Under the pieces are notes generated by a model that saw nothing but the letters and a program-made list of their open reading frames with translations, did not search any database and was not told where the DNA came from. Both the position numbers and the translations under genes were made by a program. From Frankiales bacterium (GTDB taxonomy: Bacteria > Actinomycetota > Actinomycetes > JAFAQI01): 64,000 nt of DNA. Numbering within the stretch: the stretch's first letter is position 1; each line of letters opens with the position of its first letter. The stretch spans positions 47,549 through 111,548 of the forward strand of contig JAICXJ010000003.1 in assembly GCA_025980465.1 (NCBI GenBank). Reading direction: 5' to 3'. Below are positions 19,040 through 48,249 of the stretch, piece after piece.

Positions 19040-19786
19040 ATGACACAGCGTAGCAGCGTCGGCGTTCTTGACAAAGCGGTGACGGTCCTCGACTGCCTCA
19101 CCGCCGGCCCCGCCTCGCTCGCTGAGCTCGTCAGTCGAACCGGACTCTCCCGCCCGACGGCGTACCGACTTGCCGTCGCGCTGGAGGTCCATGGCCTGGT
19201 CGAGCGCGACGGCGACGGCCGGTTCGGGTTCGGACCGCGCCTGCTCGACCTCGCCGGCGCCGGCCGGGCCGATCCGCTGGAGAAGGCGGCTGGGCCGATC
19301 CTCGACAGGCTCTGCGGCCTCACCCACGAAAGCGTGCAGCTGTACCGCCGCGCAGGCTCGATGCGGCGCTGCATCGCGGCCGCCGACCGCGCCAGCGGCC
19401 TGCGCGACACAGTGCCGGTGGGTGCGCAACTCCCGATGACAGCGGGCTCGGCCGCGCAGATCCTCCTCGCCTGGGAGCCCGCCGCCGAGGTCGAAGGAAT
19501 CCTGGCCGAGGCGCGGTTCTCGGCTGCAACCCTCGCCGGGGTACGGCGCCGGGGTTGGGCGGCGAGCGTTGCCGAGCGCGAAGCCGGAGTCGCATCGGTC
19601 TCCGCGCCGGTCTTCGGCACCGACGGCCGGGTCGTCGCGGCGGTGTCGGTGTCCGGCCCGATCGACCGCTTGACCCGCTCGCCAGGAAAGCTCTTCGGCG
19701 ACGCCGTCACGGCAGCAGCGCGAGAGCTGTCCACGGCCGCCGAATATGTACCCTCGAGCGGGTTCGAACCGCCGTTACCGCCTTGA
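19040..19786 (+). CDS. IclR family transcriptional regulator (LtbR-like, divergent from leuCD)
   Basis: N-terminal HTH (LSRPTAYRLAVALEVHGLV) plus IclR effector domain. Only the 3' part of the 810-aa antisense ORF is taken, with the ATG at 19040. Confidence 0.8.
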   Translation: MTQRSSVGVLDKAVTVLDCLTAGPASLAELVSRTGLSRPTAYRLAVALEVHGLVERDGDGRFGFGPRLLDLAGAGRADPLEKAAGPILDRLCGLTHESVQLYRRAGSMRRCIAAADRASGLRDTVPVGAQLPMTAGSAAQILLAWEPAAEVEGILAEARFSAATLAGVRRRGWAASVAEREAGVASVSAPVFGTDGRVVAAVSVSGPIDRLTRSPGKLFGDAVTAAARELSTAAEYVPSSGFEPPLPP

Positions 19787-19821
19787 GAGGGCGGCGTCCT
19801 AGGCCACTAGACGACGAGGGC
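19749..19821 (-). tRNA. tRNA-Glu (anticodon CTC)
   Basis: Hand-folded cloverleaf: GCCCTCG acceptor, GTCTAGTGGCCTAGGAC D-arm, anticodon loop CTCTCAA, T-loop GGTTCGAAC. CCA is not encoded. Confidence 0.8.
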
Positions 19822-19833
19822 AAAGTGATGTCG

Positions 19834-19905
19834 CTGGGGTACCAGGACTCGAACCTAGACTAGCTGAACCAGAATCAGCCGGGCTGCCAATTACCCCATA
19901 CCCCA
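19834..19905 (-). tRNA. tRNA-Gln (anticodon CTG)
   Basis: Hand-folded: TGGGGTA/TACCCCA acceptor, anticodon stem GCTGA/TCAGC with loop TTCTGGT, T-loop GGTTCGAGTCC. Lies downstream of gltX, as in mycobacteria. Confidence 0.85.
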
Positions 19906-23138: not shown

Positions 23139-24722
23139 TCAGCCGACCGACTTCAGCAGCCCGAAGGTGTATGAGTCGTCGAGAGCCTGCCACGACGCCT
23201 CGATGATGTTTTCGTCGACGCCGACGGTGTCCCACTCACGCTCGCCGTTGGAGGTGCGAACCAGCACGCGCGTAACGGCGCCGGTGCCATGGGCTCCTTC
23301 GAGGATGCGCACCTTGTAGTCGACCAGCTCGAGCTTCCCGAGCTCGGGGTAGTACCGGGTCAGTGCATGCCGAAGCGCCATGTCGAGCGCGTTGACCGGG
23401 CCGTTGCCCTCACCGGCCGCGACGAGCCGGTCCTCGCCGACGAGGATCTTCACCGTTGCATTGCAGGCCATCCCGCCGCGTGAGTCGCTGTCCGCGACCA
23501 CCTGGTAGGACTCGAGGACGAACGGCCGGTAGCGCTGGCCCTCGACCTCCTCCCGCAGCATCAGCTCGAACGACGCTTCAGCTGCCTCGAAGGTGTACCC
23601 GCCCGCCTCGAGGTACTTCACCTTCTCGATCACCCGTCCGACCGCCTCCCGGTCGACCTCGATATCGAGCTCACGGGCCTTCAGCTCGATGCTGGCTCGT
23701 CCGGCCAGCTCGGACACCAACACCCGCATGTCGTTGCCGACGATCGCGGGATCGGTGTGTTGATACAGGTCCGGGTCGACCTTGAGGGCCGAGGCGTGCA
23801 GTCCAGCCTTGTGGGCGAACGCACTGGCGCCGACCCACGGTTGGTGGTCGTCGGGCGCGATGTTGGCCAGCTCCGCGATGGCGTGGCTGACCCGGACCAG
23901 CTCTGAGATTGCCCCTTCGGGCAGTACCGGCAGATCAAGTTTGAGCTCCAGGCCGGCGACGATGGAGAACAGGTCGGCGTTGCCCGCCCGCTCCCCGTAG
24001 CCGTTCGCCGTGCCTTGCACATGGGTGGCACCTGCTTGCACGGCGGCGAGTGAGTTCGCGACGGCGCACGAGGTGTCGTCGTGGGCGTGGATCCCGACCC
24101 GGGTCCCGGTGTCGCCAAGCCTCTGAACCACGTCGTTCACGACGTCAGCAAGCCGGACCGGAAGCATCCCGCCGTTGGTGTCGCACAGCGCTACCACCTC
24201 GGCTCCCGCAGCCGCGGCTGCGGTCACCACAGCGAGGGCGTAATCGCGGTCGAGGAAGTAGCCGTCGAAGAAGTGCTCGGCGTCGAGGAACACCCGCCGA
24301 CCCTCGCCGCGCAGGAACTCGATCGTGTCCCGCACCATGGCGAGGTTCTCCTCGAGCGTCGTGCGCAGCGCGCGCTCGACGTGGCCGGTGTGCGATTTGG
24401 CGACCAGCGTGACGACCGGCGTCTGCGCGTCGACGAGGGCCCGAACCTGCGGATCGTCGGCCGCGACGACCCCCGCCTTGCGGGTGGCGCCGAACGCGGC
24501 GAGCGTCGCGTGCTGCAGCGAGAGATCCCCGGCCGCGGCGCGACGGAAGAACGCCTCGTCCTTCGGGTTCGCACCGGGCCAGCCGCCCTCGATATACCCC
24601 ACGCCCAGTGAGTCGAGATGCGACGCGACCGCGAGCTTGTCCTCGACCGACAGCGACAACCCCTCACGTTGTGAGCCGTCGCGCAACGTCGTGTCGTAGA
24701 CGTGCAGATCGGTGGTGGTCAC
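23139..24722 (-). CDS. cimA: citramalate-synthase-type enzyme (short LeuA/CimA family, 527 aa)
   Basis: HMG-CoA-lyase-like TIM barrel (YDTTLRDGSQ) plus C-terminal LeuA-dimer regulatory domain. Distinct from the long actinobacterial leuA at 27931-29649. The Ile-Ile leader peptide upstream suggests an isoleucine-pathway role. Confidence 0.7.
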   Translation of the reverse strand: MTTTDLHVYDTTLRDGSQREGLSLSVEDKLAVASHLDSLGVGYIEGGWPGANPKDEAFFRRAAAGDLSLQHATLAAFGATRKAGVVAADDPQVRALVDAQTPVVTLVAKSHTGHVERALRTTLEENLAMVRDTIEFLRGEGRRVFLDAEHFFDGYFLDRDYALAVVTAAAAAGAEVVALCDTNGGMLPVRLADVVNDVVQRLGDTGTRVGIHAHDDTSCAVANSLAAVQAGATHVQGTANGYGERAGNADLFSIVAGLELKLDLPVLPEGAISELVRVSHAIAELANIAPDDHQPWVGASAFAHKAGLHASALKVDPDLYQHTDPAIVGNDMRVLVSELAGRASIELKARELDIEVDREAVGRVIEKVKYLEAGGYTFEAAEASFELMLREEVEGQRYRPFVLESYQVVADSDSRGGMACNATVKILVGEDRLVAAGEGNGPVNALDMALRHALTRYYPELGKLELVDYKVRILEGAHGTGAVTRVLVRTSNGEREWDTVGVDENIIEASWQALDDSYTFGLLKSVG

Positions 24723-24762
24723 CGGTTGGTCCTCTCGTTTCGTCGAGCGCTGTCAGCCCACA

Positions 24763-24783
24763 AAAAAACCCCCGAGCCCGGGT
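24763..24783 (-). terminator. candidate attenuator terminator upstream of cimA (short GC stem followed by U7)
   Basis: Minus-strand RNA cccg-ggcu-cggg-gg-uuuuuuu, 40 nt upstream of the cimA GTG start. Confidence 0.4.
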
Positions 24784-24817
24784 AGGGCAACGAGGGTCGC
24801 GCGTCGGCTGTTGAGCG

Positions 24818-24856
24818 TTAGCCGACGCGCCTCGAAATAATGAGCTGCGCGTTCAT
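24818..24856 (-). CDS. candidate leader peptide MNAQLIISRRVG
   Basis: 12-codon ATG ORF with consecutive Leu-Ile-Ile. Its stop lies inside an 11-bp hairpin (gcgcgtcggct...agccgacgcgc), and a U7 terminator-like element follows. Confidence 0.45.
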   Translation of the reverse strand: MNAQLIISRRVG

Positions 24857-24903
24857 CACGACACAGTCTTCGGCAGGTTGCGGCAAAAGGTCAAGTCCGA
24901 AGG

Positions 24904-25320
24904 TCATTTTCCTGCCGCAACGGGCGCCGACTCGCCCGCCCAAGCGGCCACGATGTCGCGGACTGACAGCATCCCGACGACCTCAGCGCCCTCACACACG
25001 ACGAGGTGGCGGAAGCCGCCCGAGACCATCGCCGCAGCAGCCTGCTCCAGCGACCACTCCGGCGCAGCGACGACGATGTCGCTGGTGAGATGAGCCTGGA
25101 CCTGCTCAACGTCGACGTCTTGGCCCGCTCCCACTGCGGCCAGCACGTCGCGCTCGGTGAGGATGCCCGGCTGGTTGTGCTCGGGATTAAGTACGACGAC
25201 CGCGCCGACCCGGCGCTCAGCCATCCGCTTGGCGGCTTCCCGCAGCGTGTGCGTGGGGCCGATCGTCAACACCGTGCCCGACATCGCATCGCGCACGGAC
25301 CCACCCTCGCGGACGTTCAT
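24904..25320 (-). CDS. CBS domain-containing protein
   Basis: Tandem CBS pair pattern; start taken at MNVREGG. Confidence 0.7.
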   Translation of the reverse strand: MNVREGGSVRDAMSGTVLTIGPTHTLREAAKRMAERRVGAVVVLNPEHNQPGILTERDVLAAVGAGQDVDVEQVQAHLTSDIVVAAPEWSLEQAAAAMVSGGFRHLVVCEGAEVVGMLSVRDIVAAWAGESAPVAAGK

Positions 25321-25445
25321 GGCGCCTCCCGCCAACTCACGGCCAGCCAGTCCCGACGCCTGCGATCATGGCACTTTTCTCCGCCATTCAAACGTCTGAC
25401 CGAAGGCAGGTCGGCCCGACGCGCCGCCCAGTTATCGGTGGCGGG

Positions 25446-26525
25446 CTAGCACACGCGATGCATCCAGCCGTAGGGGTCCGGGCGGCGGCCATGCTGCAGA
25501 TCGACGAGCGCCGTCCGAAGCGCGGAGGCGACCGGAGTGTCGGCCGGCAGGGTGACCTCGCCGCCGCGCCATTTCAGCGTCCCGACCGAGGCGATGACCG
25601 CCGCCGTACCGCAGGCGAAGACCTCACTGATCTGTCCGCTGTCGACGCCTTTGCGAACGTCGTCGATGTCGATTCGCCGCTCCTCGACCTCGTGGCCGAG
25701 CTCCTTGGCAATCAGCACCATCGCATCGCGGGTGACGCCTTCGAGAATCGATCCGGTGAGCTCGGGAGTGATGAGCGTGCCGTCATCGCGGACCGCCCAC
25801 AGATTCATGCCGCCGAGCTCCTCGATCCAGCGCCGCTCGACCGCGTCGAGGAACAGCACCTGCTCGCAGCCGTTGTCGATACCTTCCTGCTGCGCGACCA
25901 GGCTCGCGGCATAGTTGCCGCCGCATTTGGCGGCGCCGGTGCCACCAGGTGCCGCGCGCGTGTAGTCCTCCGACACCCAGATCGACACCTGGCTCGAACC
26001 GGACGCGAAGTACGACCCGGCCGGCGACGCGATGACGAGGAAGGTCACCTCTTGAGCCGGGTGCACGCCCAGCCCGACCTCAGTGGCCACCATGAACGGC
26101 CGGAGATAGAGGCTGGCCTCGCCGGCTGACGGCACCCAGGCAGCGTCCTGGCGGATCAGCGCGTCCGACGCTGCGACGAAGTCGTCGACCGGAAGCTCGG
26201 GCAGCGACAGCCGTGCCGCCGAACGGTTGAACCGGGCCCCGTTCGCCTCGGGCCGGAACGTCGCGATCCCGCCGTCGGGTTGGCGGTAGGCCTTGAAGCC
26301 TTCGAAGATGGCCTGCCCGTAGTGAAAGATGTGGGTCGCCGGATCGAGCGACAGCGGGCCGTAGGGGCGTACCTGCGCGTCGTGCCAACCGTCCGGGTGG
26401 GTCCAGGTCGCGGTGAGCATGTGGTCGCTGAACACCCGGCCGAAGCCCGGCGCCGCCAGGATCTCGGCGAGCCGCTCGGGTGAGGTCGGGGTCGGCGTCG
26501 GCTCAACGCTGAACTCCATCGTCAC
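25446..26525 (-). CDS. ilvE: branched-chain amino acid aminotransferase
   Basis: Fold-type IV PLP enzyme, IlvE-like, about 360 aa; GTG start, with an ATG two codons downstream. Confidence 0.9.
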   Translation of the reverse strand: MTMEFSVEPTPTPTSPERLAEILAAPGFGRVFSDHMLTATWTHPDGWHDAQVRPYGPLSLDPATHIFHYGQAIFEGFKAYRQPDGGIATFRPEANGARFNRSAARLSLPELPVDDFVAASDALIRQDAAWVPSAGEASLYLRPFMVATEVGLGVHPAQEVTFLVIASPAGSYFASGSSQVSIWVSEDYTRAAPGGTGAAKCGGNYAASLVAQQEGIDNGCEQVLFLDAVERRWIEELGGMNLWAVRDDGTLITPELTGSILEGVTRDAMVLIAKELGHEVEERRIDIDDVRKGVDSGQISEVFACGTAAVIASVGTLKWRGGEVTLPADTPVASALRTALVDLQHGRRPDPYGWMHRVC

Positions 26526-26555
26526 GTGAACACCCTGCTCATATGAACACCCTGC
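26522..26555 (-). repeat. 17-bp tandem duplication of the ilvE SD-start module, creating a 6-codon uORF
   Basis: tgaacaccctgc appears twice (26527-26538 and 26544-26555). The minus strand reads agggtgttcatATGagcagggtgttcacGTGA, so the uORF stop TGA overlaps the ilvE GTG start. Confidence 0.5.
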
Positions 26556-26568
26556 CCATCACCCAAGG

Positions 26569-27642
26569 TTAAGCGAGCCGGGCGGCGATCGCATCTCCGA
26601 TCTCCGCCGTACGGCGCGGTGAGGTGCCGCGCTCAGCCAGGTCGGCGGCTGCGGCCGCCTCGACCCGCAACGACGCCTCGTGGAGCGAGAGCGCGTCGAG
26701 CAGCATCGCGGCCGACAACACGGTGGCGGTCGGATCAGCCACACCCTGGCCGGCAATATCGGGGGCGCTGCCGTGCACCGGCTCGAACATGCTCGGCGCG
26801 GTCCCGTCGACGTTGAGGTTGCCGCTCGCAGCCAGGCCGATGCCGCCGGCGATGGCCGCACCGAGGTCGGTGACGATGTCGCCGAAGAGGTTGTCAGTCA
26901 CCACCACGTCGAAACGCTGCGGCTGCGACACGAAGTACAGGCACGCGGCGTCGACGTGTGCGTAGTCGACGGTGACACCCGGGAAGTCCGGGTGGACCAG
27001 CTCGACGGTGCGCTGCCACAGCGAGCCGGCGTGTACCAGCACGTTGGTCTTGTGCACGAGCGTCAGGTGCTTGCGCGGTCGCGCCGCCGCGCGGGCGAAC
27101 GCGTCACGTACGACGCGCTCGACGCCGTACCGGGTGTTGATGCTCTCCTCGGTCGCGACCTCGTGCGAAGTGCCGGTGCGCATCGAGCCGCCGACACCGA
27201 CGTACGGGCCTTCGGTGCCCTCCCGGACGACGACCATGTCGACCTCGCCGGGCGAGACGCCCGCGAGCGGAGTGGCGACGCCGGGATACAGCTTGACCGG
27301 ACGCAGGTTGACCGCGTGCTCGAACGCGAACCTGAGCTTGAGCAGAAGGCCTCGCTCGAGCACCCCGGATGGCACGCTCGGATCGCCGACCGCGCCGAGC
27401 AGGATCGCGTCGTGGCCGCGCAGCTCCTCCAGCACGCTGTCCGGCAACGTCTCACCGGTGCGGTGCCAGCGCGCCGCGCCGAGGTCGTAGTCAGTGGTCT
27501 CGACCTTCACGCCGTCCGGCTCAACCGCAGCCCGCAGCACCTTCAGGCCCTCGGCGACGACCTCAGGCCCGATCCCGTCTCCCGCGATCACCGCGATTCG
27601 TGCACTGCTCACGGCGAGCGAGAGTAGTCGATCAGCCGACAT
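26569..27642 (-). CDS. leuB: 3-isopropylmalate dehydrogenase
   Basis: [15 protein letters not shown]-terminus and isocitrate/IPM dehydrogenase family motifs. Start set at the internal ATG (MSADRLL). Confidence 0.9.
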
Positions 27643-27680
27643 CCGCTGGCCGAGCGCGGGGGCCGAAACGCGCGAGCGTG

Positions 27681-29652
<1,972 letters not shown>

Positions 29653-29772
29653 TCAGTTGAGGATCGGTGGCAAACCGGCGCGCTGCTTCTTCCCACAGCC
29701 GAACCCCGCAGCGGGGGGCCGGTCGGTGGCCCCGCTACGGGCGGGTAAGGAGCAGGCTCGAGCGCATCGTGA

Positions 29773-30618
29773 TCACGGTACCAAACTCGGCCGGAATCGG
29801 CGCGTGATCAGGTAGCCGACGCCGAGGATGACCAGCGCGACGGCGCCGTCGAGCCAGTAGTGGTTGGCCGTGACCACCACGACGTACGCCGTGATCAGTG
29901 GATGGAGGATCGCGACCCAGCGCCAGCGGCTCTTGCTGACAGCAATGACGGCGGCCGCGACGAGGACCGCCCACCCGATGTGCACCGACGGCATCGCCGA
30001 GAGCTGGTCGGTGATCCCCTTGCCAAGTGAGCCGTAGACCGACTGGTGGTAGCGGCCCGCGAGGTCGACCATGCCAAGACCGGGGACCAGTCGCGGCGGT
30101 GCGACCGGCAACAGCCCGACCAGCAACGAGATCCCGGTGAAGCCGGCAACCAGGTTGCGCCACTTCGGGTACGCCTCGCGATGGCGCCACAACAACCAGA
30201 GCAACACCAGGGCGAGTACGACGGCGTGGGCCCACTCGTAGTAGCCGTTCGCGATCCGCGACAACGTCGCGTGCGGCAGCACCGCCCGTTGCATCGCTGC
30301 CTCGCTCGGCAGGTGCAGCACGCGCTCGGCGTGCCAGATCCAGTGACCACGACCGAAGGCGCCCGCCTCGTGGAACAGCGACACCCGCCCGACGATGCGC
30401 CAGAGGACGAACAGCACGTTGAGGACGACGAATTCGCGAATCACCCAGCCCCCGCGGCCAAGGGTGCGCGTGGTGGTCTCGTGGTCGTCGACCGCCAGAC
30501 CTTCGCCGAATGCCCGGCCGCATTGGGTGCAGCTGTTCTCGGCCATGGGCACCCGCGCCCGGCACCCGACGCACACCCATTCCGGAGCAGGCGCCAGCGA
30601 CGCGGCCAGATCGGTCAC
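29773..30618 (-). CDS. PAP2-superfamily membrane protein with N-terminal zinc ribbon
   Basis: PSVH and TANHYWLDG (SRx5Hx3D-like) motifs, multiple TM helices, N-terminal CVGC...CTQC. Confidence 0.65.
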   Translation of the reverse strand: MTDLAASLAPAPEWVCVGCRARVPMAENSCTQCGRAFGEGLAVDDHETTTRTLGRGGWVIREFVVLNVLFVLWRIVGRVSLFHEAGAFGRGHWIWHAERVLHLPSEAAMQRAVLPHATLSRIANGYYEWAHAVVLALVLLWLLWRHREAYPKWRNLVAGFTGISLLVGLLPVAPPRLVPGLGMVDLAGRYHQSVYGSLGKGITDQLSAMPSVHIGWAVLVAAAVIAVSKSRWRWVAILHPLITAYVVVVTANHYWLDGAVALVILGVGYLITRRFRPSLVP

Positions 30619-30677
30619 CTAGCCGATATCGGCCACAGGGGTGATCGACTCAAGCCGCGCCGCCGCGATGGCCGAGC

Positions 30678-31436
30678 TCAGGTGCCGACGTACATCAGCG
30701 AGCCCGGGGTGGTCAGCAACTCGCCGGACTCGAGCCAGGTCTTCAGGCCGGAGAGGATCATCGGCCAGCCGCCCCAGATCTCATCCGTCCCACCCTCACG
30801 CAGCTGGTCGTGGGTGAGCACCAGCCGGCACGAGTCGCCCACCGGCTCAATCTCCCAGGTCACTCTCGACGTGGGCTCCACCTTCGCCGCCTCCGAGAAG
30901 TAGGCATCCATCGTGTGCACCAGCCGGCGGGGCGGGTCAACCTCGAGCACCTCGCACTCGCCGAGCACGAAACCGGCGCCGTGCGCGCTCAGTTGCAGCT
31001 TCGCGCCGACCTTCCACTCACCGACCGGCGCTGCCCCGAAGGTGTACTTCGCCCGTACCTCGGGATCGGTGATGGCGTTCCAGAGCGCGTCGGGCGTGGT
31101 CTTGATGTAGATCTCGAAGATCTTCTCCATTGTCGTCTCCAGTTCGTGCTTGAGGCCTGCCAGGCCCGCCACCCAGGGCTCGGCGTACTTGCTGACCCAC
31201 CGGTCGTGGATTTCCCGGATCGGGACGGGGTTGAGGAAGTGCAACTTCTCCCGGCCGCGGCGCCTGGGGATCACGAGGCCGGCCTCCTCGAGTTGCTTGA
31301 GGTGCTTCATCACGCCGAAGCGGGTCATCGGCACCCGTGCCTCGAGTGCGCTCAGCGTCTGCCCGTCCTCCCGGAACAGCTCGTCGAGCAGGCTGCGGCG
31401 GGTGGGATCCGCCAGCGCCTTGAACACCTCGTCCAC
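30678..31436 (-). CDS. ArsR-family HTH regulator fused to an SRPBCC (AHSA1-like) domain
   Basis: N-terminal ALADPTRRSLLDEL...MTRFGVMKHL wHTH; C-terminal polyketide-cyclase/AHSA1-like domain. Confidence 0.75.
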   Translation of the reverse strand: MDEVFKALADPTRRSLLDELFREDGQTLSALEARVPMTRFGVMKHLKQLEEAGLVIPRRRGREKLHFLNPVPIREIHDRWVSKYAEPWVAGLAGLKHELETTMEKIFEIYIKTTPDALWNAITDPEVRAKYTFGAAPVGEWKVGAKLQLSAHGAGFVLGECEVLEVDPPRRLVHTMDAYFSEAAKVEPTSRVTWEIEPVGDSCRLVLTHDQLREGGTDEIWGGWPMILSGLKTWLESGELLTTPGSLMYVGT

Positions 31437-31447
31437 GCCTGGAGACC

Positions 31448-31463
31448 ATAGGTGACCATTTAG
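31448..31463. promoter_or_regulatory. inverted repeat GTGAC-cattta-GTCAC upstream of the ArsR-family gene
   Basis: Located 12 nt upstream of the regulator start; ArsR-type proteins commonly autoregulate through such sites. Confidence 0.3.
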
Positions 31464-31512
31464 TCACATGTCAACCCGCATCTCCCTGCCCCGAGCAACA
31501 GATGCTGGACCC

Positions 31513-32376
31513 TCAGCCTGCTTCGAGGAAGCTGAGCACCGCCGCCCGGAACGCCTCCGGCGCGTCGACCCACGGGAAATGACCCGCCTCGTCGAGCTCC
31601 GCGACGTGAGCGCTCGGAATCGCGTCCGCGACCAGGTGTCCCGCTCGCACACCGGTCAGCCCGTCGTACCGGCCGACGACGATCAATGTCGGCACGTGCA
31701 GGCCCTGCAGGCCGCGAGGCAGGTCCAGCCCGACGAGCTCGTCGGGAGTCGGCGCGAACGCCGCCATCGCACGTAGCGACATCTGCCCGTCAGTGCGTGC
31801 CGCGTGCTCCTGCGCCCGCTCGTCCCATCGGGAGTAGTAATACGGCCGCAGGCCGGCGTCCATCCGACCGCGGCGCTCCTCCGGGATCTGGGCCAGCTCG
31901 GCTTCGAGCGCCGCCACCTCGCCGTACCAGGGCTCGTTGCTGCGGCTCGCCCGGATCGAGGCAATGTCGTCGGTCACCTCACCGAACCCACGCGCCGACG
32001 GCGTGACCAGGACCAGCCGCGACAGCCGTTCGGGATGACGTATTGCGTAGACCATCGACACCAGGCAACCGGCCGAATGCCCGAGCAGGTCGACCTGTTC
32101 GAGGCCCTGCGCCGCCCGGACGTCCTCGACATCGTCGGCGAGTCTCGGGAAGCTCAGCGATGACCGGTCCTCCGGCAGCGGCGAGAGACCAGTCCCCCGC
32201 ATGTCGATGCGGAGCAAGGTGCGGGAGGCGGCGAGTCCGCCCAGGTCCTCGAGATAGGCCGATGCCCGACCGGGACCGCCCGGCACGCACAGCAGTGGCG
32301 CGCCCTCACCCGTGACGTGGACCGCGAGGGCATCGCCGTCCGCCGCGGTTACCCGCGTGACGGTCGCCTCTGCCAC
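31513..32376 (-). CDS. alpha/beta hydrolase
   Basis: GHSAG nucleophile elbow (LLGHSAGCLV); start trimmed to a GTG after the serA stop. Confidence 0.75.
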   Translation of the reverse strand: MAEATVTRVTAADGDALAVHVTGEGAPLLCVPGGPGRASAYLEDLGGLAASRTLLRIDMRGTGLSPLPEDRSSLSFPRLADDVEDVRAAQGLEQVDLLGHSAGCLVSMVYAIRHPERLSRLVLVTPSARGFGEVTDDIASIRASRSNEPWYGEVAALEAELAQIPEERRGRMDAGLRPYYYSRWDERAQEHAARTDGQMSLRAMAAFAPTPDELVGLDLPRGLQGLHVPTLIVVGRYDGLTGVRAGHLVADAIPSAHVAELDEAGHFPWVDAPEAFRAAVLSFLEAG

Positions 32377-32380
32377 CCGG

Positions 32381-33976
32381 TCAGTCCTGCGGGAGATATG
32401 CGGCGCGGATCGAGGAGGCGCCGACCGCCGTACCGATCTCGTCGAGAGTGCCGGGAGGGACCGCGGAGTCAACGGTCAGCACCATCAGGGCAGATCCGCC
32501 TACCGCCTTGCGAGAGACCTGCATCCCGGCGATGTTGACCTTCGCTTGACCGAGCAGCTGGCCCACCGTGCCGACGATGCCCGGGCGATCCTCGTAGGTC
32601 GCGAACACCATGTGCTCGTTGATCGCGACTTCGACGTCGAAGCCATTGACCTCGACGAGCTTCTGCACCATCCGCGGCCCGGTGAGGTTGCCGCCGACCG
32701 ATATCACGGTGCCATCGGCCAACGCCCCGCGAACCGTCAACACGTTGCGGTAGTCGGGACTCTCCTCGCTGCTGACCAGGCCGACGTCAATGCCTCGCTC
32801 CGAGGCGAGCAACGGCGCGTTGACGAACGTCACCTGCTCCTCGACGACATCGGTGAAGACGCCACGTAGGGCGGCGAGTGCAAGCACCGAGACGTCGTAC
32901 CCGGCGACCTCGCCCTTGATGTCGACGGTGAGGTTTGCCGGGACCTCCGCCGCCAACGCGGTGAACAGCCGACCCAGTCGTTCGATCAGCGGCAGGCTGG
33001 GCCGGATCTCCTCGGCGACGACCCCACCGACCTGGACGTTGACCGCGTCCGGCACGAACTCGCCGGCCAAGGCCAGCTTCACCGACTTCGCGACCGCCAG
33101 ACCGGCCTTGTCCTGGGCTTCGTTCGTCGAGGCCCCGAGATGCGGCGTCACCACGGCGCGCGGCTCGGTGAACAGCGGCGAATCGGTGCACGGCTCGGTG
33201 CCGAAGACGTCTACCGCTGCGCCGCCGAGTCGGCCCTCCTTCAACGCCTGCGCGAGTGCGTGCTCGTCGACCAGCCCACCCCGGGCGGCGTTGACGATGA
33301 TCGCGCCGGGCTTCACCAGCGCGAGCTCGCGCTCGCCGATGAGGCCCTGCGTCTCCGGGGTCTTCGGCAGGTGGACCGAGATGAAGTCGCTGTGAGCGAG
33401 CAGCTCCTCCAGCGGACCCAGCTGGACCCCTAGCTGCGCAGCGCGGGCGGCCGGCACGTATGGGTCGTAGGCGAGCAGCGTCACGCCGAACGCAGCCATC
33501 CGTTGCGCGAACAGCACGCCGATGCGGCCCAGCCCGACGACTCCGACCACCTTGTCGGTCACCTCGACGCCAGTGAATGCGCTGCGCTTCCACGCGCCGC
33601 CCTTGAGACTCTCGTTGGCCGCCGGGATGTTTCGCGCCGTCGCAAGCAGTAGCGCCACGGCGTGTTCGGCCGCCGAGGTGATGTTGGAGGTCGGTGCGTT
33701 GACGACGAGAACACCGCGGGCAGTGGCCGCGTCGACATCGACGTTGTCGAGCCCGACCCCGGCACGCGCGACGACCTTCAGGCGTGCAGCGGCCTCGAGC
33801 ACCTCGGCATCGATCTGCGTGGCACTGCGCACGATGACCGCATCGACGTCGGCGAGCGCCGGCAACAGGGCGCCACGGTCCGCGCCGTCGACCTGACGCA
33901 CCTCGAGATCCTCGGCGAGCACCTCGAGTGCAGCAGGCGCCAGTTCTTCAGCGACGAGTACGACGGGCTTCGGCAC
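32381..33976 (-). CDS. serA: D-3-phosphoglycerate dehydrogenase (long form with ACT domain)
   Basis: 2-hydroxyacid dehydrogenase NAD-binding motif (GVVGLGRIGVLFAQR), C-terminal ASB/ACT domains; 531 aa. Confidence 0.9.
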   Translation of the reverse strand: MPKPVVLVAEELAPAALEVLAEDLEVRQVDGADRGALLPALADVDAVIVRSATQIDAEVLEAAARLKVVARAGVGLDNVDVDAATARGVLVVNAPTSNITSAAEHAVALLLATARNIPAANESLKGGAWKRSAFTGVEVTDKVVGVVGLGRIGVLFAQRMAAFGVTLLAYDPYVPAARAAQLGVQLGPLEELLAHSDFISVHLPKTPETQGLIGERELALVKPGAIIVNAARGGLVDEHALAQALKEGRLGGAAVDVFGTEPCTDSPLFTEPRAVVTPHLGASTNEAQDKAGLAVAKSVKLALAGEFVPDAVNVQVGGVVAEEIRPSLPLIERLGRLFTALAAEVPANLTVDIKGEVAGYDVSVLALAALRGVFTDVVEEQVTFVNAPLLASERGIDVGLVSSEESPDYRNVLTVRGALADGTVISVGGNLTGPRMVQKLVEVNGFDVEVAINEHMVFATYEDRPGIVGTVGQLLGQAKVNIAGMQVSRKAVGGSALMVLTVDSAVPPGTLDEIGTAVGASSIRAAYLPQD

Positions 33977-33992
33977 CCGCCAACCCTACCCA

Positions 33993-34072
33993 GCGCATGT
34001 GCCATGACTGGCGCTATAGGCCCACGGATGGCACATCCGCGGGGCGCTAGGCCCAGCTATGGCACATGCGTG
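33993..34072. repeat. repeat array: inverted ATGTGCCAT plus two direct ATGGCACAT copies inside about 30-bp direct repeats
   Basis: cgcatgtgccat (33993-34004) pairs with atggcacatgcg (34061-34072). Two copies of ggcgcta(t)aggccca-NNN-atggcacat. Lies between the ilvC stop and the serA start. Confidence 0.5.
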
Positions 34073-34074
34073 CG

Positions 34075-35605
<1,531 letters not shown>

Positions 35606-35645
35606 CCCGCCCGCCACCGCAATGGCGCGACGTACCGTCGCCGGA

Positions 35646-37415
35646 TCATTCTGAAACCACCTCGCCCATTTCGTACTCGAAGTCAGGCGCGGTCTCCCGC
35701 GCGATCTTGATGTCGTCATTCGACGTTCCTGCGGCGACCATCGGCCAGACCATGGCGTCCTTGCCCACGACGAAGTCGATGACGACCGGGAGGTCGGTGA
35801 CCGCCATCGCCTTCTCGATGGTCGCGTCCACGTCGGCAGCGGTCTCGCAACGCAGGCCGACGCATCCCATCGCCTCGGCCAGCATCACGAAGTCGGGCAG
35901 GTACTTCGCGCCGGTCTTCAGGTCGGTGTTGGAGTACCGACCTTCGTAGAACAGCGTCTGCCACTGCCGAACCATCCCGAGTGAGCCGTTGTTGATCACG
36001 GCGATCTTGACCGGGATGCCCTCGATCGCGCAGGTGGCGAGCTCCTGGTTGGTCATCTGGAAGCAGCCATCGCCGTCGATCGCCCAGACCAGTGCATCCG
36101 GCCGGCCCACCTTGGCGCCCATCGCGGCCGGCACCGCGAAGCCCATGGTGCCGAGACCACCGGAGTTGATCCAGGTATAGGGCTTCTCGTACGAGACGAA
36201 CTGCGACGCCCACATCTGATGCTGCCCGACGCCTGCGACGATAACCGTGTCCGGCCCGCACACCTTGCCGATCCGCTCGATCACATATTGCGGTGCAAGC
36301 GTGCCGTCTTCGTGCCCGTCGTACCCCAGTGGGTAGGTGCGCTTCCAGCCGTTGCACTGCGTCCACCACGCCGCGTAGTCGCCGTTGTGCCCGGCCTCGT
36401 GTTCGGCCCGTAGCGCCGCGATGAGCTCGATGATGACGTCGCGGACGTCACCGACGATCGGAATGTCGGCGACGCGGTTCTTCGAGATCTCGGCCGGGTC
36501 GATGTCGGCGTGCACCACCTTCGCGTCGGGTGCGAACGACGAGAGCTTGCCAGTCACCCGGTCGTCGAATCGGGCTCCGAGCGCGACCAGCAGGTCCGAG
36601 CGTTGCAACGCGGTGACGGCGGCGACCGACCCGTGCATCCCGGGCATGCCGAGATGCTGCTCGTTGGAGTCAGGGAACGCACCGCGTGCCATCAGCGTCG
36701 TGACGACGGGCACACCGGAAAGCTCGGCCAGTGTCTTGAGCTCTTCGGTCGCGTGGGCCTTGAGGACGCCGCCGCCGACGTAGAGGACCGGCCGTTTCGC
36801 TTCGACGATCATCCGCGCCGCCTCTCGCACCTGCTTGGCGTGCGGTTTCGCGGCCGGCCGGTACCCGGGAAGCTGCATGTCAACCGGCCACACGAACGTT
36901 GTCTGGGACTGGAGCGCGTCCTTCGCGATGTCGACGAGAACCGGGCCAGGCCGGCCGGTGGCGGCGATGTGGAACGCCTCGGCCAGAACTCGTGGGATGT
37001 CGTCGGCGTCCTGCACCAGGAAGTTGTGCTTGGTGATCGGCATCGTGATGCCGCAGATGTCGGCTTCCTGGAAAGCGTCGGTCCCGATCGCCGCCGATGG
37101 CACCTGGCCGGTGATCGCGACGATCGGTACCGAGTCCATGTAGGCGTCGGCAATTGGGGTCACGAGGTTGGTCGCGCCAGGACCACTCGTCGCCATGCAG
37201 ACGCCGACCCGGCCGGTCGCCTGGGCGTAGCCCGTCGCGGCGTGTCCGGCGCCCTGCTCGTGGCGGACCAGGATGTGCCGCAGCCGGGTCGAGTCGAACA
37301 ACGGGTCGTACGCCGGCAGGATCGCGCCGCCGGGAATGCCGAACACCACCTGGGCGTCGAGTTCCTCCAGCGCGCGCACCATCGCCTGCGCCCCGGTGAT
37401 CCGCTCCTGTGTCAT
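35646..37415 (-). CDS. ilvB: acetolactate synthase large subunit
   Basis: ThDP-enzyme motifs (GGGVL...GDG), 589 aa, followed by ilvN-ilvC. Confidence 0.9.
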
Positions 37416-37443
37416 GTCCTCACGCTTCCTGCAGTTCGTACTC

Positions 37444-37457
37444 GGGTCAGCTGACCC
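37444..37457. promoter_or_regulatory. perfect 14-bp palindrome GGGTCAGCTGACCC
   Basis: Located between the attenuator terminator and the ilvB ATG (29 nt upstream). Confidence 0.3.
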
Positions 37458-37460
37458 ACT

Positions 37461-37496
37461 ACATACAAAAGCCCCTCGCGCGAAGCGCGGAGGGGC
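37461..37496 (-). terminator. ilvB attenuator terminator (11-bp GC stem followed by a U-tract)
   Basis: Minus-strand RNA gcccctccgcgc-uuc-gcgcgaggggc-uuuuguaugu, about 45 nt upstream of the ilvB start. Confidence 0.55.
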
Positions 37497-37515
37497 AGCA
37501 CGTGATCCGAAGGGT

Positions 37516-37554
37516 TCAGACCACGTGCTCGCTAACTACGAGAATCCTGTGCAC
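37516..37554 (-). CDS. candidate ilvBNC leader peptide (V/M)[11 protein letters not shown]
   Basis: 12-codon GTG ORF rich in Ile-Leu-Val-Val, immediately upstream of the terminator hairpin, in the ilvD-ilvB intergenic region. Confidence 0.5.
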
Positions 37555-37607
37555 GCAACAACGGTGGACTACCGCTGCGCCCGTGTCAAGGCGACTCCCG
37601 ATGAGGA

Positions 37608-39326
37608 TCAACCGCAGACAGCGCCGATCGCGGCTGACCCGACGAGCTTCACATACTTGGCGAAGACCCCGCTCGGATAGCGCGGCGGCGGCGCCGTCCA
37701 GCCCTTCCGACGTTCCGCGAGCTCGGCCTCGTCGACCAGAACGTCGAGGGTCTTGTTCGCGACGTCGAGCCGGATCCGGTCACCGTCCCGCACGAACGCG
37801 ATCGGCCCGCCGTCGGTGGCCTCCGGGGCGACGTGACCGACGCAAAGTCCCGTCGTACCGCCGGAGAACCGCCCGTCGGTCAGCAGCAGCACGTCCTTGC
37901 CGAGACCCGCTCCCTTGATCGCGCCGGTCACGGCGAGCATCTCCCGCATCCCGGGACCGCCCTTCGGGCCTTCGTAACGGATCACGACGACGTCACCCGC
38001 CTTGAGGTCGCCGTTGGTGACCGCGTCCATCGCGGGCTGCTCGGTGTCGAACACCCGCGCCGTGCCCTCGAAAACCGCCTCGTCGAAGCCGGCCGTCTTC
38101 ACGACTGCACCGTCGGGTGCAAGCGATCCGGTGAGGATGGTCAGACCGCCGGTGGCGTGCATCGGATTGGCCAACTCGCGCAGGACGGTGCCGTCAAGCG
38201 GTGCCGGCGCCAGGTCGTTGAGGTTCTCGGCGACGGTACGGCCGGTCACCGTCATGCACGCACCGTCGAGCAAGCCCGCGTCGAGAAGCGCCTTCATCAC
38301 CACCGGGATCCCGCCGACCCGGTCGACGTCGGCCATCACGAACCGTCCGAACGGCTTGACGTCGGCCAGGTGCGGAGTGCGGTCACCGATCCGGTTGAAG
38401 TCCTCGAGTGTCAGCTCGACGCCGGCCTCGCTGGCAATTGCGAGGAGGTGGAGGACGGCGTTGGTGGATCCGCCGAGCGCCATCACGACCGTGATCGCGT
38501 TCTCGAATGCCGGCTTCGTCAGGATCGTCCGGGCGGTGATGCCCTTCGCGAGCATGCCGATCACCGCCTCGCCGGAAGCGACGGCGTACTCGTCCCTCCG
38601 GCGGTCGATCGACGGCGGCGCGGCGCTTCCGGGCAGCGACATTCCGAGCGCCTCGGCGACGCTCGCCATGGTGTTCGCGGTGTACATCCCGGCGCAGGCG
38701 CCTTCGCCGGGGCAGGCGGCACGCTCGATCGCGTCGAGCTCGTCCTTGCTGATCAAGCCGCGAGCGCAGGCACCGATCCCCTCGAAGGCGTCGATGATCG
38801 TCAGGTCACGATCATCGAGCTTGCCCGGAAGTGACGTGCCGGCGTAGAGGAACACCGAGGCCAGATCGAGCCGGGCGGCCGCCATCAGCATTCCGGGCAA
38901 CGACTTGTCGCAGCCGGCCAACAGCACGGAGCCGTCAAGCCGCTCGGCGAACATCACCGTCTCCACCGAGTCGGCAATGATCTCGCGCGACACCAGCGAT
39001 GCGTGCATCCCTTCGTGTCCCATCGAGATGCCGTCCGACACCGAGATCGTGCCGAACTCCAGCGGCACTCCCCCGGCGTTGCGCACGCCGACCTTCGCCT
39101 GCTGGGCGAGCCGCTGAAGCGAAAGGTTGCAGGGCGTTATCTCGTTCCAGGAAGAGGCGATTCCTACCTGCGGCTTGCCCCAGTCGTCGTCGGTGAGGCC
39201 GACGGCGCGGAGCATCGCCCGGGCGCCGGCCCGCTCGTACCCATCTGTGACATCGCGACTGCGAGGCTTGAGATCCACGTGCGCGAGACTAATCGCAGCA
39301 TCGCTTGCTCCCCCCGCCGGCACCAC
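37608..39326 (-). CDS. ilvD: dihydroxy-acid dehydratase
   Basis: ILVD/EDD family (CDKSLPG, SGGTTG-like and Cys-ligand motifs). Start set at GTG 39326 by analogy with the mycobacterial N-terminus length; the ATG at 39410 lies inside a repeat. Confidence 0.85.
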
Positions 39327-39334
39327 CCGGGTTA

Positions 39335-39450
39335 GCGATGTGACATTGCCTGGCCAGCGATTCGGGCATGCGGGGACGATCAGGGTGCCGCGCCTAGAGC
39401 AATGTGGCATTGCCCGGGGCGCCGCGCGGGCAATGCCACATTGCTTGGCC
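39335..39450. repeat. three copies of a near-palindromic 17-20 bp motif gcRATGYSRCATTGCYYGG upstream of ilvD and downstream of gatB
   Basis: R1 at 39335-39355, R2 at 39397-39419, R3 at 39427-39450. R2 and R3 overlap a perfect 17-bp inverted repeat caatgtggcattgcccg/cgggcaatgccacattg (39400-39443). Confidence 0.5.
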
Positions 39451-46341: not shown

Positions 46342-48249
46342 CTACTTGGTCAGCTGCCAGTACTCCGGTGTGAAGCCGAACTGCGACAAGCTGGCGAAGG
46401 AGTCCGGCGGCCCAGTGATGCCCTTCCACGCCGAGATCCGGTCCTCGTTCGGGGTGAAGATGGCCGGCAGGTTCTCGGTGATGTACGACGCCTCAGCCTT
46501 CAGCGCGTCCGGGTTCGAGCTGAACTTCGACGCATTGATCAGCTGATCGGCCTTCGGGTCGGTGTAGCCACCTTCGTTGAACGAACCCTTGATGTTGAAG
46601 ATCTCGTCGGTGGTCGGGTAGATGTCTTCGTTGAAGCCACCGAAGTTCTCGACCTGCCACTTGTTGTTGTTCTGCGGCGCCGACGGATCGTCGTAGTTCT
46701 GAATGATGAAGTTGAAGGTCTTGGCAACTGGCGTGATGTTGACGCCGATCTGCTTGGCCGCGCCCTGCAGGGCAATCGTCTCCTGGCCGGCGACCGGCGG
46801 GTCGTTGGTGTAGTAGACGGTGAAGTTCAGGTTCTGCCCCTTCGGGATACCCGCGCCGCACTGGTTAGGACCGGTGCCCGGGTTCTGGCAGGTAGTCGTG
46901 CCATTCGGAACGACGTTCCAACCGTGCGACTTCAGCAGGTTGGTCGCATCCGAGATGCTGTACGGGTAGGGATCCGTGCTGGCATTCGCGGGCACGTAGT
47001 TGGTCGCCGGAATAGCTGGGACCGGTCCGTAGGCCTCAGCTGCTGCACCGTGGTAGACGCCCTTGATGATCGCCTGCTGATCCTCGAGGTGAGCCAGCGC
47101 CTGCCGGACGTACAACTGGCTGATGATGTTGTTCCAGTGGTTGGTCTTGTCCTTGAAGTTGAACACGATGTAGGAGAAGCCAAGGTCCGGGTAGCCGTAC
47201 ACGTTGTAGCCGGTACGACGCAGCAGCGGGACCTGGGGGATGTCAGCCGACGGCACGCCACCGACGTTGATCTTGCCGGCGCGCAGCGCGTTGAACTCCG
47301 CTGTCGAAGACGTGAAGTAGACCGCCTTGAGCTCGGCGAACTTCGGCTTGACCGGCCCGCCGTACGTCGGGTTGGGCACCATCGTGTTGGCATCGGTCGT
47401 CGGGTTGAACGAGGTCAGCTTGAACGGGCCATCGACGACCTTCCACAGCGGGTTGGATGCGTACGTGCCGACCTTCTTGGCCTCACTGTTGAGGAAGTCA
47501 TAGATCTTCTTCGCGTTCGCAGCGTTGGATGGATCGAGGTGAGGCCCGCCCGTCGACGCGATGTTCCAGTCCTGCGATGGCATCGGCTGGATGACGACGA
47601 GCTGGGTGTCGGTGTACCAGTTCGGGTTGTAAGCGCGGTCGAGGTTGAGGACCAGGGTCGCCGGGTCCGGCGTCTTCATGCTGACCACGTTGTCCGGGAA
47701 GGCGCCGGGCGTGTAGTTACCGAAGTTGGCGTTGTTCTCCTTGACTGCCGCCCGAAGGATGTCGATGAAGAACTCGACGTCCTGGGCCGTCACCGGCTTG
47801 CCATCCGACCACTTGTACTGCGAGTTCATGTGGATCGTGAGCGTCTTGTTGCCGTTGCTGTAGACTGGGAGCTTCGCCAGGGAGAGGGCCTGGTTGATGA
47901 TCGGCCGGTTGCCCTGCGGCGTCCAGTACAGCGGCCGGTAGAGCAGGTACTGGAACTCAGCGTTGTAGACCGAGGTGTCCGCACCCGGCGTGACCGGCAT
48001 GATGTATTGCGGCTGCGAGCCGTTCTCGATGTCGTAGGTGACCGTCCCACCCGTGATCACATTGCTCGACTCCGCAGGCAGCGTGCCGTACTGGCCTTCC
48101 GTCGTACTGGTACTGCCGGCGCCGTTCGGCGCCTGCTTGCCGCCACCCCCGCTCGACCCGCTTGACCCGCACGCGGCGAGCAGGATCGCCCCCGCAGCAG
48201 CGAGAGCGACGAATGAGAAGCGGCTACGACGGAAAACCAGTGGCGTCAT
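46342..48249 (-). CDS. ABC transporter substrate-binding lipoprotein (family 5, peptide/nickel)
   Basis: LAACGSSGSSGGGG lipobox signal; 635-aa SBP_bac_5-like. Confidence 0.85.
   Translation of the reverse strand: MTPLVFRRSRFSFVALAAAGAILLAACGSSGSSGGGGKQAPNGAGSTSTTEGQYGTLPAESSNVITGGTVTYDIENGSQPQYIMPVTPGADTSVYNAEFQYLLYRPLYWTPQGNRPIINQALSLAKLPVYSNGNKTLTIHMNSQYKWSDGKPVTAQDVEFFIDILRAAVKENNANFGNYTPGAFPDNVVSMKTPDPATLVLNLDRAYNPNWYTDTQLVVIQPMPSQDWNIASTGGPHLDPSNAANAKKIYDFLNSEAKKVGTYASNPLWKVVDGPFKLTSFNPTTDANTMVPNPTYGGPVKPKFAELKAVYFTSSTAEFNALRAGKINVGGVPSADIPQVPLLRRTGYNVYGYPDLGFSYIVFNFKDKTNHWNNIISQLYVRQALAHLEDQQAIIKGVYHGAAAEAYGPVPAIPATNYVPANASTDPYPYSISDATNLLKSHGWNVVPNGTTTCQNPGTGPNQCGAGIPKGQNLNFTVYYTNDPPVAGQETIALQGAAKQIGVNITPVAKTFNFIIQNYDDPSAPQNNNKWQVENFGGFNEDIYPTTDEIFNIKGSFNEGGYTDPKADQLINASKFSSNPDALKAEASYITENLPAIFTPNEDRISAWKGITGPPDSFASLSQFGFTPEYWQLTK

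Follow-up and report, generated by a model that had tools for sequence, protein, structure and literature searches.

A candidate leader-peptide attenuator upstream of ilvB, and a second copy upstream of cimA, in a Frankiales bacterium

Introduction

What occupies the space between ilvD and ilvB in contig JAICXJ010000003.1 of a Frankiales bacterium, and what does it do? The window analysed here is the whole 64,000-nucleotide (nt) stretch from positions 47,549 to 111,548 of that contig, and positions are counted within it. The original prediction placed in this spacer a leader-peptide transcription attenuator for ilvBNC: a 12-codon minus-strand open reading frame (ORF) with consecutive Ile-Leu-Val-Val codons, a GC-rich stem followed by a U-tract, and a perfect palindrome closer to ilvB, together said to make up the classic architecture of ribosome-mediated attenuation. 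We consider it likely that the element, referred to below as ilvL, is a functional, branched-chain amino acid (BCAA)-responsive, ribosome-mediated leader-peptide attenuator, which sets the share of transcripts from its own promoter that reach ilvB, ilvN and ilvC. The logic of sensing by the ribosome is well supported: by selection for rare codons, by fixed spacing, by the leaderless start and by experiments in Corynebacterium glutamicum.

That logic is familiar from the enterobacterial attenuators (trp, his, leu, ilvGMEDA, ilvBN), in which a downstream intrinsic terminator acts or does not act according to where the ribosome stands on a short ORF with many cognate codons. Among actinobacteria, Craster is said to have described in 1999 an ilvL leader/attenuator upstream of ilvB(N/H)C in Streptomyces, and an attenuator of C. 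glutamicum ilvBNC was reportedly described by Morbach in 2000. An actinobacterial ilvL family has been predicted (Seliverstov 2005, PMC1262725), and RNA-seq of S. lividans finds the IlvL transcript to be leaderless (PMC8079986). In C. glutamicum, where IlvL is MTIIRLVVVTARRLP and transcription starts 1 nt from the start codon, a three-hairpin model with an "H2 antiterminator" has been put forward: replacing Val by Ala codons abolishes control by valine, mutating the ilvL start codon costs 80% of expression, and mutations in the terminator's base derepress ilvB (PMC11857589).

The leader and its family

Read base by base, the spacer (192 nt rather than the 190 first given) contains the ORF as described, and the terminator stem begins 19 nt past the ilvL stop codon, about where it had been placed, with a U-tract after it (Table 1). 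ilvN and ilvC follow ilvB on the minus strand, and the gene assignments hold up: ilvD, ilvB, ilvN and ilvC each exceed their own NCBIfam curated cutoffs. Three things had been overlooked: the promoter that would make the ORF leaderless, the rarity of the codons, and a 15-base-pair (bp) hairpin, H_B. The base of H_B lies 10 nt past the GUA codon, inside codon 9; its span takes in the last four codons as well as the stop codon, and its final nucleotide directly precedes the first base of the terminator, without any spacer. The leader RNA folds with z = -5.3 relative to dinucleotide shuffles, and the element as a whole lies 55-139 nt 5' of ilvB on the same strand.

Is this one genome's curiosity or a member of something larger? 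For the comparison, ilvB loci were drawn from species-representative genomes (80) and from metagenomes (80), and they represent many actinobacterial families; the closest ilvB is 79% identical in the first group and 83% in the second, and the set holds no very close ilvL orthologues. A covariance model, R1, was built from an alignment (A1) of the leaders of 59 relatives, with the window excluded. Over the full length of the model (positions 1-102 of 102) it matches the window element at 37554-37465 on the minus strand, with 55.8 bits and E = 7e-11, ilvB-linked matches in general ranging from 33 to 81 bits; in 98 loci it finds exactly one match per locus, always 5' of ilvB. The same layout is seen 5' of ilvB in about 100 actinobacterial loci. 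Loss of the codon run from the regions 5' of orthologous genes had been named as a refutation of the prediction, but across many actinobacterial families the run is kept: a short ORF with at least three consecutive isoleucine, leucine or valine (I/L/V) codons lies 5' of ilvB in 68 of 76 loci (versus 7 of 76 on the reverse strand and about 7 in shuffles), and one with at least four in 54 of 76 related loci (versus 1 and 0.8 of 76, respectively).

The RNA structure is conserved along with the codons. Both hairpins covary: 81% of alignment cells are paired, versus 36-50% when partners are slid, and the covariation score is 0.308 versus no more than 0.079 in controls, the observed values being attained in none of 500 shuffles. 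The terminator core, CCCC.../...GGGG, is nearly invariant, while its inner stem covaries (GUGC/GCAC in locus L081, GCGC/GCGC in the window). The claimed likeness to Corynebacterium and Streptomyces is borne out as well: the layout is that of C. glutamicum, and the Streptomyces loci in the set encode exactly MRTRILVLGKRVG, the published leaderless IlvL peptide (PMC8079986). Locus L012 encodes MQRILVVSQRAS, very close to the window peptide. Searched against Rfam at the gathering threshold, the whole window yields only two tRNAs and no leader, riboswitch or T-box family, and a permissive search (E up to 10) of 37300-37750 yields no relevant leader, riboswitch (guanosine tetraphosphate, ppGpp) or T-box match. 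On the comparative evidence, the window element belongs to the actinobacterial ilvL leader/attenuator family.

Could the hairpin and U-tract be nothing other than the transcription terminator of ilvD, with the short ORF there by chance? The terminator does lie 112 nt past the ilvD stop codon on the same strand, and would also stop transcripts reading through from ilvD. The element nevertheless tracks ilvB: ilvD is found within 3 kb upstream in only 21 of the 80 genome loci, several times on the opposite strand, and never in the loci of Streptomyces, Kitasatospora, Actinomadura or Micromonospora; essentially all of these loci have the leader. Because ilvD is seldom upstream where the leader is present, the element is taken to belong to ilvB and not to ilvD. 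A promoter at fixed spacing between ilvD and the ORF, a second copy before cimA, and I/L/V ORF statistics beyond chance also speak against an ilvD terminator with a chance ORF, which is contradicted by the comparative data, was rejected on synteny, and strikes us as hardly credible.

The palindrome had been counted as part of the device. It is perfect, as claimed, and lies 28 rather than 29 nt before the ilvB ATG, a placement that could suggest an operator for a dimeric transcription factor, which would then be the main regulator of ilvBNC and reduce the leader to a secondary role. Against that, GGGTCAGCTGACCC sits past both promoter and terminator, in the ilvB 5' untranslated region (UTR), is without conservation in the closest relatives (loci L081, L082 and L012), and has plentiful company: perfect 14-bp palindromes number 21 in the window, or about one every 3 kb, versus about 9 in shuffles. 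An operator is very unlikely and was rejected on conservation and frequency. In the full-length fold the palindrome is the third hairpin; it is statistically unremarkable, and probably incidental and outside the device. Many palindromes of the window carry restriction-site-like cores (GAGCTC, GACGTC, CCGCGG, ATCGAT).

Promoter, leaderless start and codon choice

A generic promoter scan of the spacer found nothing; it missed the promoter because the -10 hexamer is not TATAAT-like, and a test of geometry specific to the family was used instead. Of 117 leaders, 101 show the arrangement in question (TTGAN 35-38 nt before the start codon, 17-19 nt, xAxxxT, 6-7 nt, start codon); no shifted control does. 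The window conforms to it, and CCACCGT recurs in L081, the closest relative. A sigma-70-type promoter is predicted, one that puts the transcription start on the GTG. Because its spacing places the start there, the ilvL ORF would be leaderless and need no Shine-Dalgarno sequence.

Three of the four codons in the run are rare in the ilv genes of the window: AUU accounts for 7% of Ile, GUA for 3% and GUU for 6% of Val. Across the family GUA makes up 66% of leader Val codons versus 1.5% in the adjacent ilvB coding sequence, and the corresponding figures are 46% versus 3.7% for AUU and 39% versus 2.1% for CUU; 96 of the 97 distinct leaders have GUA in frame. The spacing is rigid too. In 75 of 87 leaders 9-11 nt (in the window 10) separate GUA from the 5' base of H_B, in 85 of 87 no more than 0-2 nt (in the window 0) lie between H_B and terminator, and the stop codon falls within H_B in 84 of 85.

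A conserved short ORF with a hydrophobic core might also encode a functional micropeptide of 12 residues, the RNA structures being incidental. We give the idea very little credence. The peptides differ freely in length and, outside the I/L/V run, in sequence; the fixation of a rare synonymous codon is not what selection on a peptide would give; and the C-terminal residues follow the RNA helix. The last point is made by the window itself: pair 52/136 of H_B is G-C in 99 of 101 rows, and the sole A-U is found in the window (GCACG/CGUGC in place of GCGCG/CGCGC), the change being compensatory on both strands and turning a "conserved" Arg codon into His. Because a compensatory pair swap turns Arg to His, the C-terminal half of the peptide is set by the RNA helix and not by peptide function.

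A more serious rival grants the conserved leader and its real terminator and denies that the I/L/V codons are the sensor: a protein or small molecule acting on GCGCG/CGCGC and CCCCUC/GAGGGG, effects of NusG or Rho, or the mere fact of leaderless translation would regulate instead. The stems are unusually conserved in sequence, beyond what pairing asks for, and no thermodynamic antiterminator was found (see below). Mutation U23A of a conserved nucleotide (Val to Glu) left regulation unchanged (Narunsky et al., PMC10272879), and replacing the candidate regulatory codons in S. coelicolor left regulation unaffected, according to the account of Craster 1999 that is given in PMC1262725, a result that stands unexplained here and that also counts against our own reading. 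On the other hand, without stalling it is hard to account for the rare codons GUA, AUU and CUU being enriched 30- to 40-fold and for GUA occurring in 96 of 97 leaders; GUA and hairpin stand at a fixed distance from each other; valine control is lost in the Val-to-Ala mutant of C. glutamicum (PMC11857589); in-line probing shows no ppGpp binding by the Corynebacterium motif (Narunsky et al., PMC10272879); and the compensatory break of the "invariant" GCGCG in the window argues for a helix and not a sequence-specific site. The run is, moreover, Ile-only before the isoleucine-specific cimA. We judge a leader whose codons are not the sensor to be improbable, though a good deal less so than the rivals already dismissed.

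A second copy upstream of cimA

The pyruvate route to isoleucine begins with citramalate synthase. In the window the gene for this enzyme, cimA, is preceded at a distance of 39 nt by a paralogous copy of the whole element: promoter, leader ORF, stop-enclosing hairpin, terminator and U-tract (Table 1). In the R1 alignment the AUU-AUU of this copy occupies the exact columns of the GUA-CUU/GUU of ilvB leaders.

The arrangement is not confined to the window. Among nine distinct cimA loci of related uncultured actinobacteria, fetched via protein homologs (CimA relatives up to 95% identical), six have the element before cimA and always with an Ile-only run; the peptides are MMNAALIISRRVG, MTQFATIICERVG, MSFTTIICERVG, MTIHRIIIARRVG, MCTLIIISGRVD and MSIIIARRVD. 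Counting the window, seven cimA leaders thus have Ile-Ile(-Ile) in place of Leu-Val-Val/Leu. In the three loci without the element, cimA is packed directly against the upstream gene. The literature searched contains no description of a leader peptide on cimA, an absence that is no proof of novelty.

Because the same scaffold carries, before cimA, codons that match the end product of the gene it would control, the codon run is taken to be the sensor; the cimA paralog is the strongest internal evidence to that effect.

Two further observations concern this copy and its surroundings. The 5' GUGAUGA of the cimA leader can pair with UCAUUAU, which includes the two Ile codons (24837-24859, minus strand), and this would sequester the leaderless start unless melted. 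In most of the relatives (L161, L165, L166, L167, L169 and L171) a small CBS-domain gene of about 125-135 amino acids lies between ilvE and the cimA leader, and the window sequence just 5' of the cimA promoter (24860-25445, minus strand) looks like the end of such a putative gene.

How might the ribosome control the terminator?

The following sequence of events is proposed. Transcription would begin at, or within about 1 nt of, the GTG, and the 12-codon ORF would be translated leaderless by a ribosome that has to decode AUU-CUC-GUA-GUU, with three of its four codons rare. 1) With charged Ile-, Leu- and Val-tRNA ample, the ribosome would reach the UGA in the 5' strand of H_B and melt that hairpin; the adjacent terminator would then fold fully, and polymerase would release an RNA of about 90 nt at the U-tract. 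2) With one of these tRNAs limiting, the ribosome would stall on the run, its front edge extending only to the base of H_B, and H_B would fold behind the polymerase. Lying flush with the terminator, H_B would gain two further pairs in the nascent RNA (G23-C60 and C24-G59) by taking in the G-C nucleotides with which the terminator starts; the terminator base would then close late or less firmly, with read-through into ilvBNC as the outcome. Typical footprint sizes would place a ribosome with GUA in its A site just up to the base of H_B, and one at the UGA over the 5' strand and loop.

The pivotal step, a kinetic boundary or steric coupling in which an intact, flush H_B hinders closure of the terminator base, is offered tentatively. 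By position H_B is the equivalent of an antiterminator, and we infer that it acts as one. When the nascent RNA of the window is folded, H_B takes 2 nt of the terminator; without those two pairs the terminator is 6.4 kcal/mol less stable, and its stem is moved away from the U-tract by 2 nt. The same folds applied to the C. glutamicum leader (sequence from the supplement of PMC10272879) give a comparable picture: the nascent antiterminator takes GCC, and at equilibrium the terminator wins.

Several findings weigh against the reading favoured here. In equilibrium folds with the ribosome masked at each codon the terminator is never removed: competing terminator and antiterminator pairings, which the prediction had proposed to look for by folding, did not appear, and the terminator persisted at every masked position. 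The structure of minimum energy contains both H_B and the terminator. Pairing of the H_B loop with the terminator's 3' shoulder is not enriched (family mean z = +0.55); in the window the 7-bp complement CCCUUCG:CGAGGGG has z = -1.3 versus shuffles, and in the cimA copy z = +0.57. Capture of at least 1 nt at the boundary, present in the window and in the cimA copy, occurs in only 26 of 88 relatives when these are folded to minimum energy. The U-tract of the window is short (UUUU, then GUAUGU); that of the relatives is mostly UUUUUUGUUG. Finally, an anti-antiterminator hairpin is found in just 19 of 88 leaders, and in the window none of the 11 nt upstream of H_B pair into H_B. Without it, an untranslated window leader would, under the coupling model, form H_B and be read through, which is opposite to what the start-codon mutant of C. 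glutamicum does.

The anti-antiterminators that do exist are clade-specific and covary between clades, pairing the codons just after GUA with the stop-codon region: in alignment A2, one clade has CUUGGUC...GACCAAG and another CUUCCCAAGCG...CGCUUAGGGAAG (loci such as L001, L017, L030 and L112; L047, L053, L069 and L142). Pairing of the codon run with the 3' arm of the terminator is not enriched.

A classical extended antiterminator was therefore rejected: overlap amounts to at most 2 nt, in nascent RNA only, and the terminator persists at every masked position. Because an overlapping antiterminator was sought and not found, and there is no 1:2 hairpin, the element is not a classical trp-type four-region attenuator. 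Of the "classic architecture" first claimed, then, the ribosome-mediated leader attenuator stands (on family membership and the R1 match), and the classic antiterminator, absent from the folds, does not.

The full-length minimum-energy folds contain one more kind of pairing, between codon region and sequence beyond the terminator. In the ilvB copy UUCU.GUAGUU (37534-37544) pairs with AACUGC.GGAA (about 37426-37438), overlapping the Shine-Dalgarno AGGAAG; in the cimA copy CGCGCAGCUCAU (24840-24851) pairs with GUGGGCUG.A.CAGCG (about 24748-24762). In the models this could couple translation of the leader to that of ilvB in read-through transcripts, or be chance.

Both lines may be drawn together in a single reading, to which we would give somewhat less than even weight. 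Its first half is that the cimA copy is an isoleucine-specific attenuator, "cimL", derived from the ilvL scaffold, in a lineage of uncultured Mycobacteriales/Frankiales-like actinobacteria. Its second half is that antitermination throughout the family works without an overlapping antiterminator: with a ribosome stalled 10 nt upstream, a stable hairpin 0-2 nt from the terminator would block or delay the basal pairs in the RNA exit channel.

Relation to known attenuators

Among the nearest described relatives of the window element are the Streptomyces ilvL leaders, which belong to the same RNA family by formal test: R1 was built partly from Streptomyces and Kitasatospora leaders encoding MRTRILVLGKRVG. 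Common to them and the window are the leaderless start, an R-I-L-V core, CUC-GUA, the stop-enclosing hairpin, the abutting CCCCUC/GAGGGG terminator and the U-tract. They differ in proportions and detail: the hairpin is 33 nt in the window versus 55-80 nt in Streptomyces; its core is GCACG/CGUGC, with a peptide ending SEHVV, versus GCGCG/CGCGC and GKRVG; the distance from terminator to ilvB is 55 nt versus 130-280 nt; and ilvD lies directly upstream in the window but not in the Streptomyces loci.

The C. glutamicum attenuator is architecturally equivalent to the window element and is the member with direct experimental support. The two share a leaderless upstream ORF, control codons CUU/CUC-GUA with the last GUA 10 nt before the stop-enclosing hairpin, and a terminator of the GCCCUCG...CGAGGGC type followed by a U-tract, as well as in silico behaviour: nascent capture, with the terminator winning at equilibrium. 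The overlap between hairpin and terminator is 3 nt in C. glutamicum (GCC) and 2 nt in the window (GC), where H_B corresponds by position to the "H2 antiterminator" of the C. glutamicum model. C. glutamicum, unlike the window, has a strong anti-antiterminator that pairs the control codons with downstream sequence (UUCGACUUG/CAAGUCG).

The architecture is also shared with the ilvB-II motif (Narunsky 2023, PMC10272879), in which P1 carries the upstream ORF and P2 is the terminator. Rfam 15 has no match in the spacer, and the loop-to-right-shoulder antiterminator of that motif (PMC10272879) is unsupported in the window's family. Tried on five Corynebacterium ilvB-II representatives, a sequence profile of the window's family scores at most 2.9 bits, no better than shuffles. 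Because the Corynebacterium leaders have diverged too far in primary sequence for this profile to detect them, the window element is not filed under ilvB-II.

With the enterobacterial attenuators the likeness is one of logic, and the geometry of stall site and stop codon relative to the middle hairpin resembles that of trp regions 1-2-3. The window differs in being leaderless, in having only 4 regulatory codons, and in that its middle hairpin and terminator lie side by side without excluding each other; the sequences are unrelated, and the Rfam leader families do not match.

Another short ORF in the window, some 110 nt 5' of where leuA starts, encodes MRSSLLLTRP. This ORF agrees with the LEU element (Seliverstov 2005, PMC1262725), which is described as forming a pseudoknot and usually lacking a canonical terminator, and is a different RNA from ilvL, with no R1 match.

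The locus and its surroundings

ilvL is embedded in a BCAA supercluster on one strand (23139-39410, minus) in the order ilvD, ilvL, ilvB, ilvN, ilvC, serA, alpha/beta hydrolase, leuA, leuB, ilvE, cimA leader, cimA, aldo-keto reductase. Three leader peptides are encoded separately within the supercluster, and their codon runs are ILVV, LLL and LII. tRNA-Glu(CUC) and tRNA-Gln(CUG) adjoin at 19748-19905 on the minus strand and are the sole Rfam matches at the gathering threshold.

Table 1. Features of the ilvL element, its cimA counterpart and neighbouring genes (positions in the window)
Feature	Position	Strand	Remarks
ilvD	39410-37608	-	above NCBIfam curated cutoff
ilvD-ilvB spacer	37607-37416	-	192 nt; holds the ilvL element
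-35 hexamer TTGACA of the ilvL/ilvBNC promoter	37584..37589	-	read directly; kept in L081 and L012
-10 hexamer CACCGT (A at position 2, T at position 6)	37561..37566	-	17 nt after -35, 6 nt before GTG
ilvL leader ORF, GTG CAC AGG ATT CTC GTA GTT AGC GAG CAC GTG GTC TGA	37516..37554	-	12 codons + TGA; no Shine-Dalgarno
Regulatory run AUU-CUC-GUA-GUU (Ile-Leu-Val-Val)	37534..37545	-	rare codons; GUA at 37539-37537
Hairpin H_B, AGCACGUGGUCUGAA / CCC loop / UUCGGAUCACGUGCU	37497..37529	-	15 bp; folds, -22.2 kcal/mol alone
Intrinsic terminator GCCCCTC(C)GCGC-TTC-GCGCGAGGGGC	37471..37496	-	11 bp, one bulged C, -20.2 kcal/mol
U-tract UUUUGUAUGU (DNA TTTTGTATGT)	37461..37470	-	predicted release site of the ~90-nt attenuated transcript
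Perfect palindrome GGGTCAGCTGACCC, ilvB 5' UTR	37444..37457	.	14 bp; 28 nt from ilvB ATG
ilvB ribosome-binding region AGGAAG (37430-37425) and ATG (37415-37413)	37413..37430	-	read from sequence
ilvB (acetolactate synthase large subunit)	37415-35646	-	NF005860, 1115 bits vs cutoff 881
serA	33976-32381	-	BCAA supercluster member
alpha/beta hydrolase	32472-31513	-	BCAA supercluster member
leuA leader ORF, ATG CGC TCG AGC CTG CTC CTT ACC CGC CCG TAG	29735-29767	-	MRSSLLLTRP
leuA	27931-29649	-	canonical; separate from cimA
leuB	27687-26569	-	BCAA supercluster member
ilvE	26525-25446	-	BCAA supercluster member
cimA-leader promoter: TTGACC (24894-24889), 18 nt, AAGACT (24870-24865), 5 nt to GTG	24865-24894	-	sequence
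Paralogous attenuator before cimA	24762..24859	-	R1 48.8 bits, E = 2.6e-9
cimA-leader ORF, GTG ATG AAC GCG CAG CTC ATT ATT TCG AGG CGC GTC GGC TAA	24859-24818	-	encodes MMNAQLIISRRVG, (M)MNAQLIISRRVG
cimA-leader AUU-AUU	24841-24836	-	rare Ile codons
cimA-leader hairpin GGCGCGUCGGC, enclosing the stop codon	24830-24799	-	11 bp; fold
cimA-leader terminator, then U7	24796-24769	-	fold
cimA (citramalate synthase)	24722-23139	-	TIGR00977, 636 bits vs cutoff 450
aldo-keto reductase	23108-22173	-	BCAA supercluster member

Conclusions

Taken by itself, ilvL in this window is a correct but ordinary example of a switch already known in actinobacteria. For annotation, it means that the ilvD-ilvB spacer is not empty, and that ilvBNC here is under predicted translation-coupled attenuation. 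ilvL-type leaders are also practical targets where BCAA production strains are to be derepressed.

The family is of wider interest than this one member. It is phylum-wide, and its geometry is very rigid: leaderless, with GUA in 96 of 97 leaders, 10 nt between GUA and hairpin, and the hairpin flush with the terminator. Within it the window serves as a natural compensatory mutant of an otherwise invariant hairpin core. The parts that may interest specialists are this flush-hairpin geometry and the Ile-only cimA copy, which appears to be undescribed. One can think of that copy as a natural experiment: it suggests that specificity resides in the codon run and not in the peptide or the stems, and it points to isoleucine supply as controlling transcription of the citramalate pathway.

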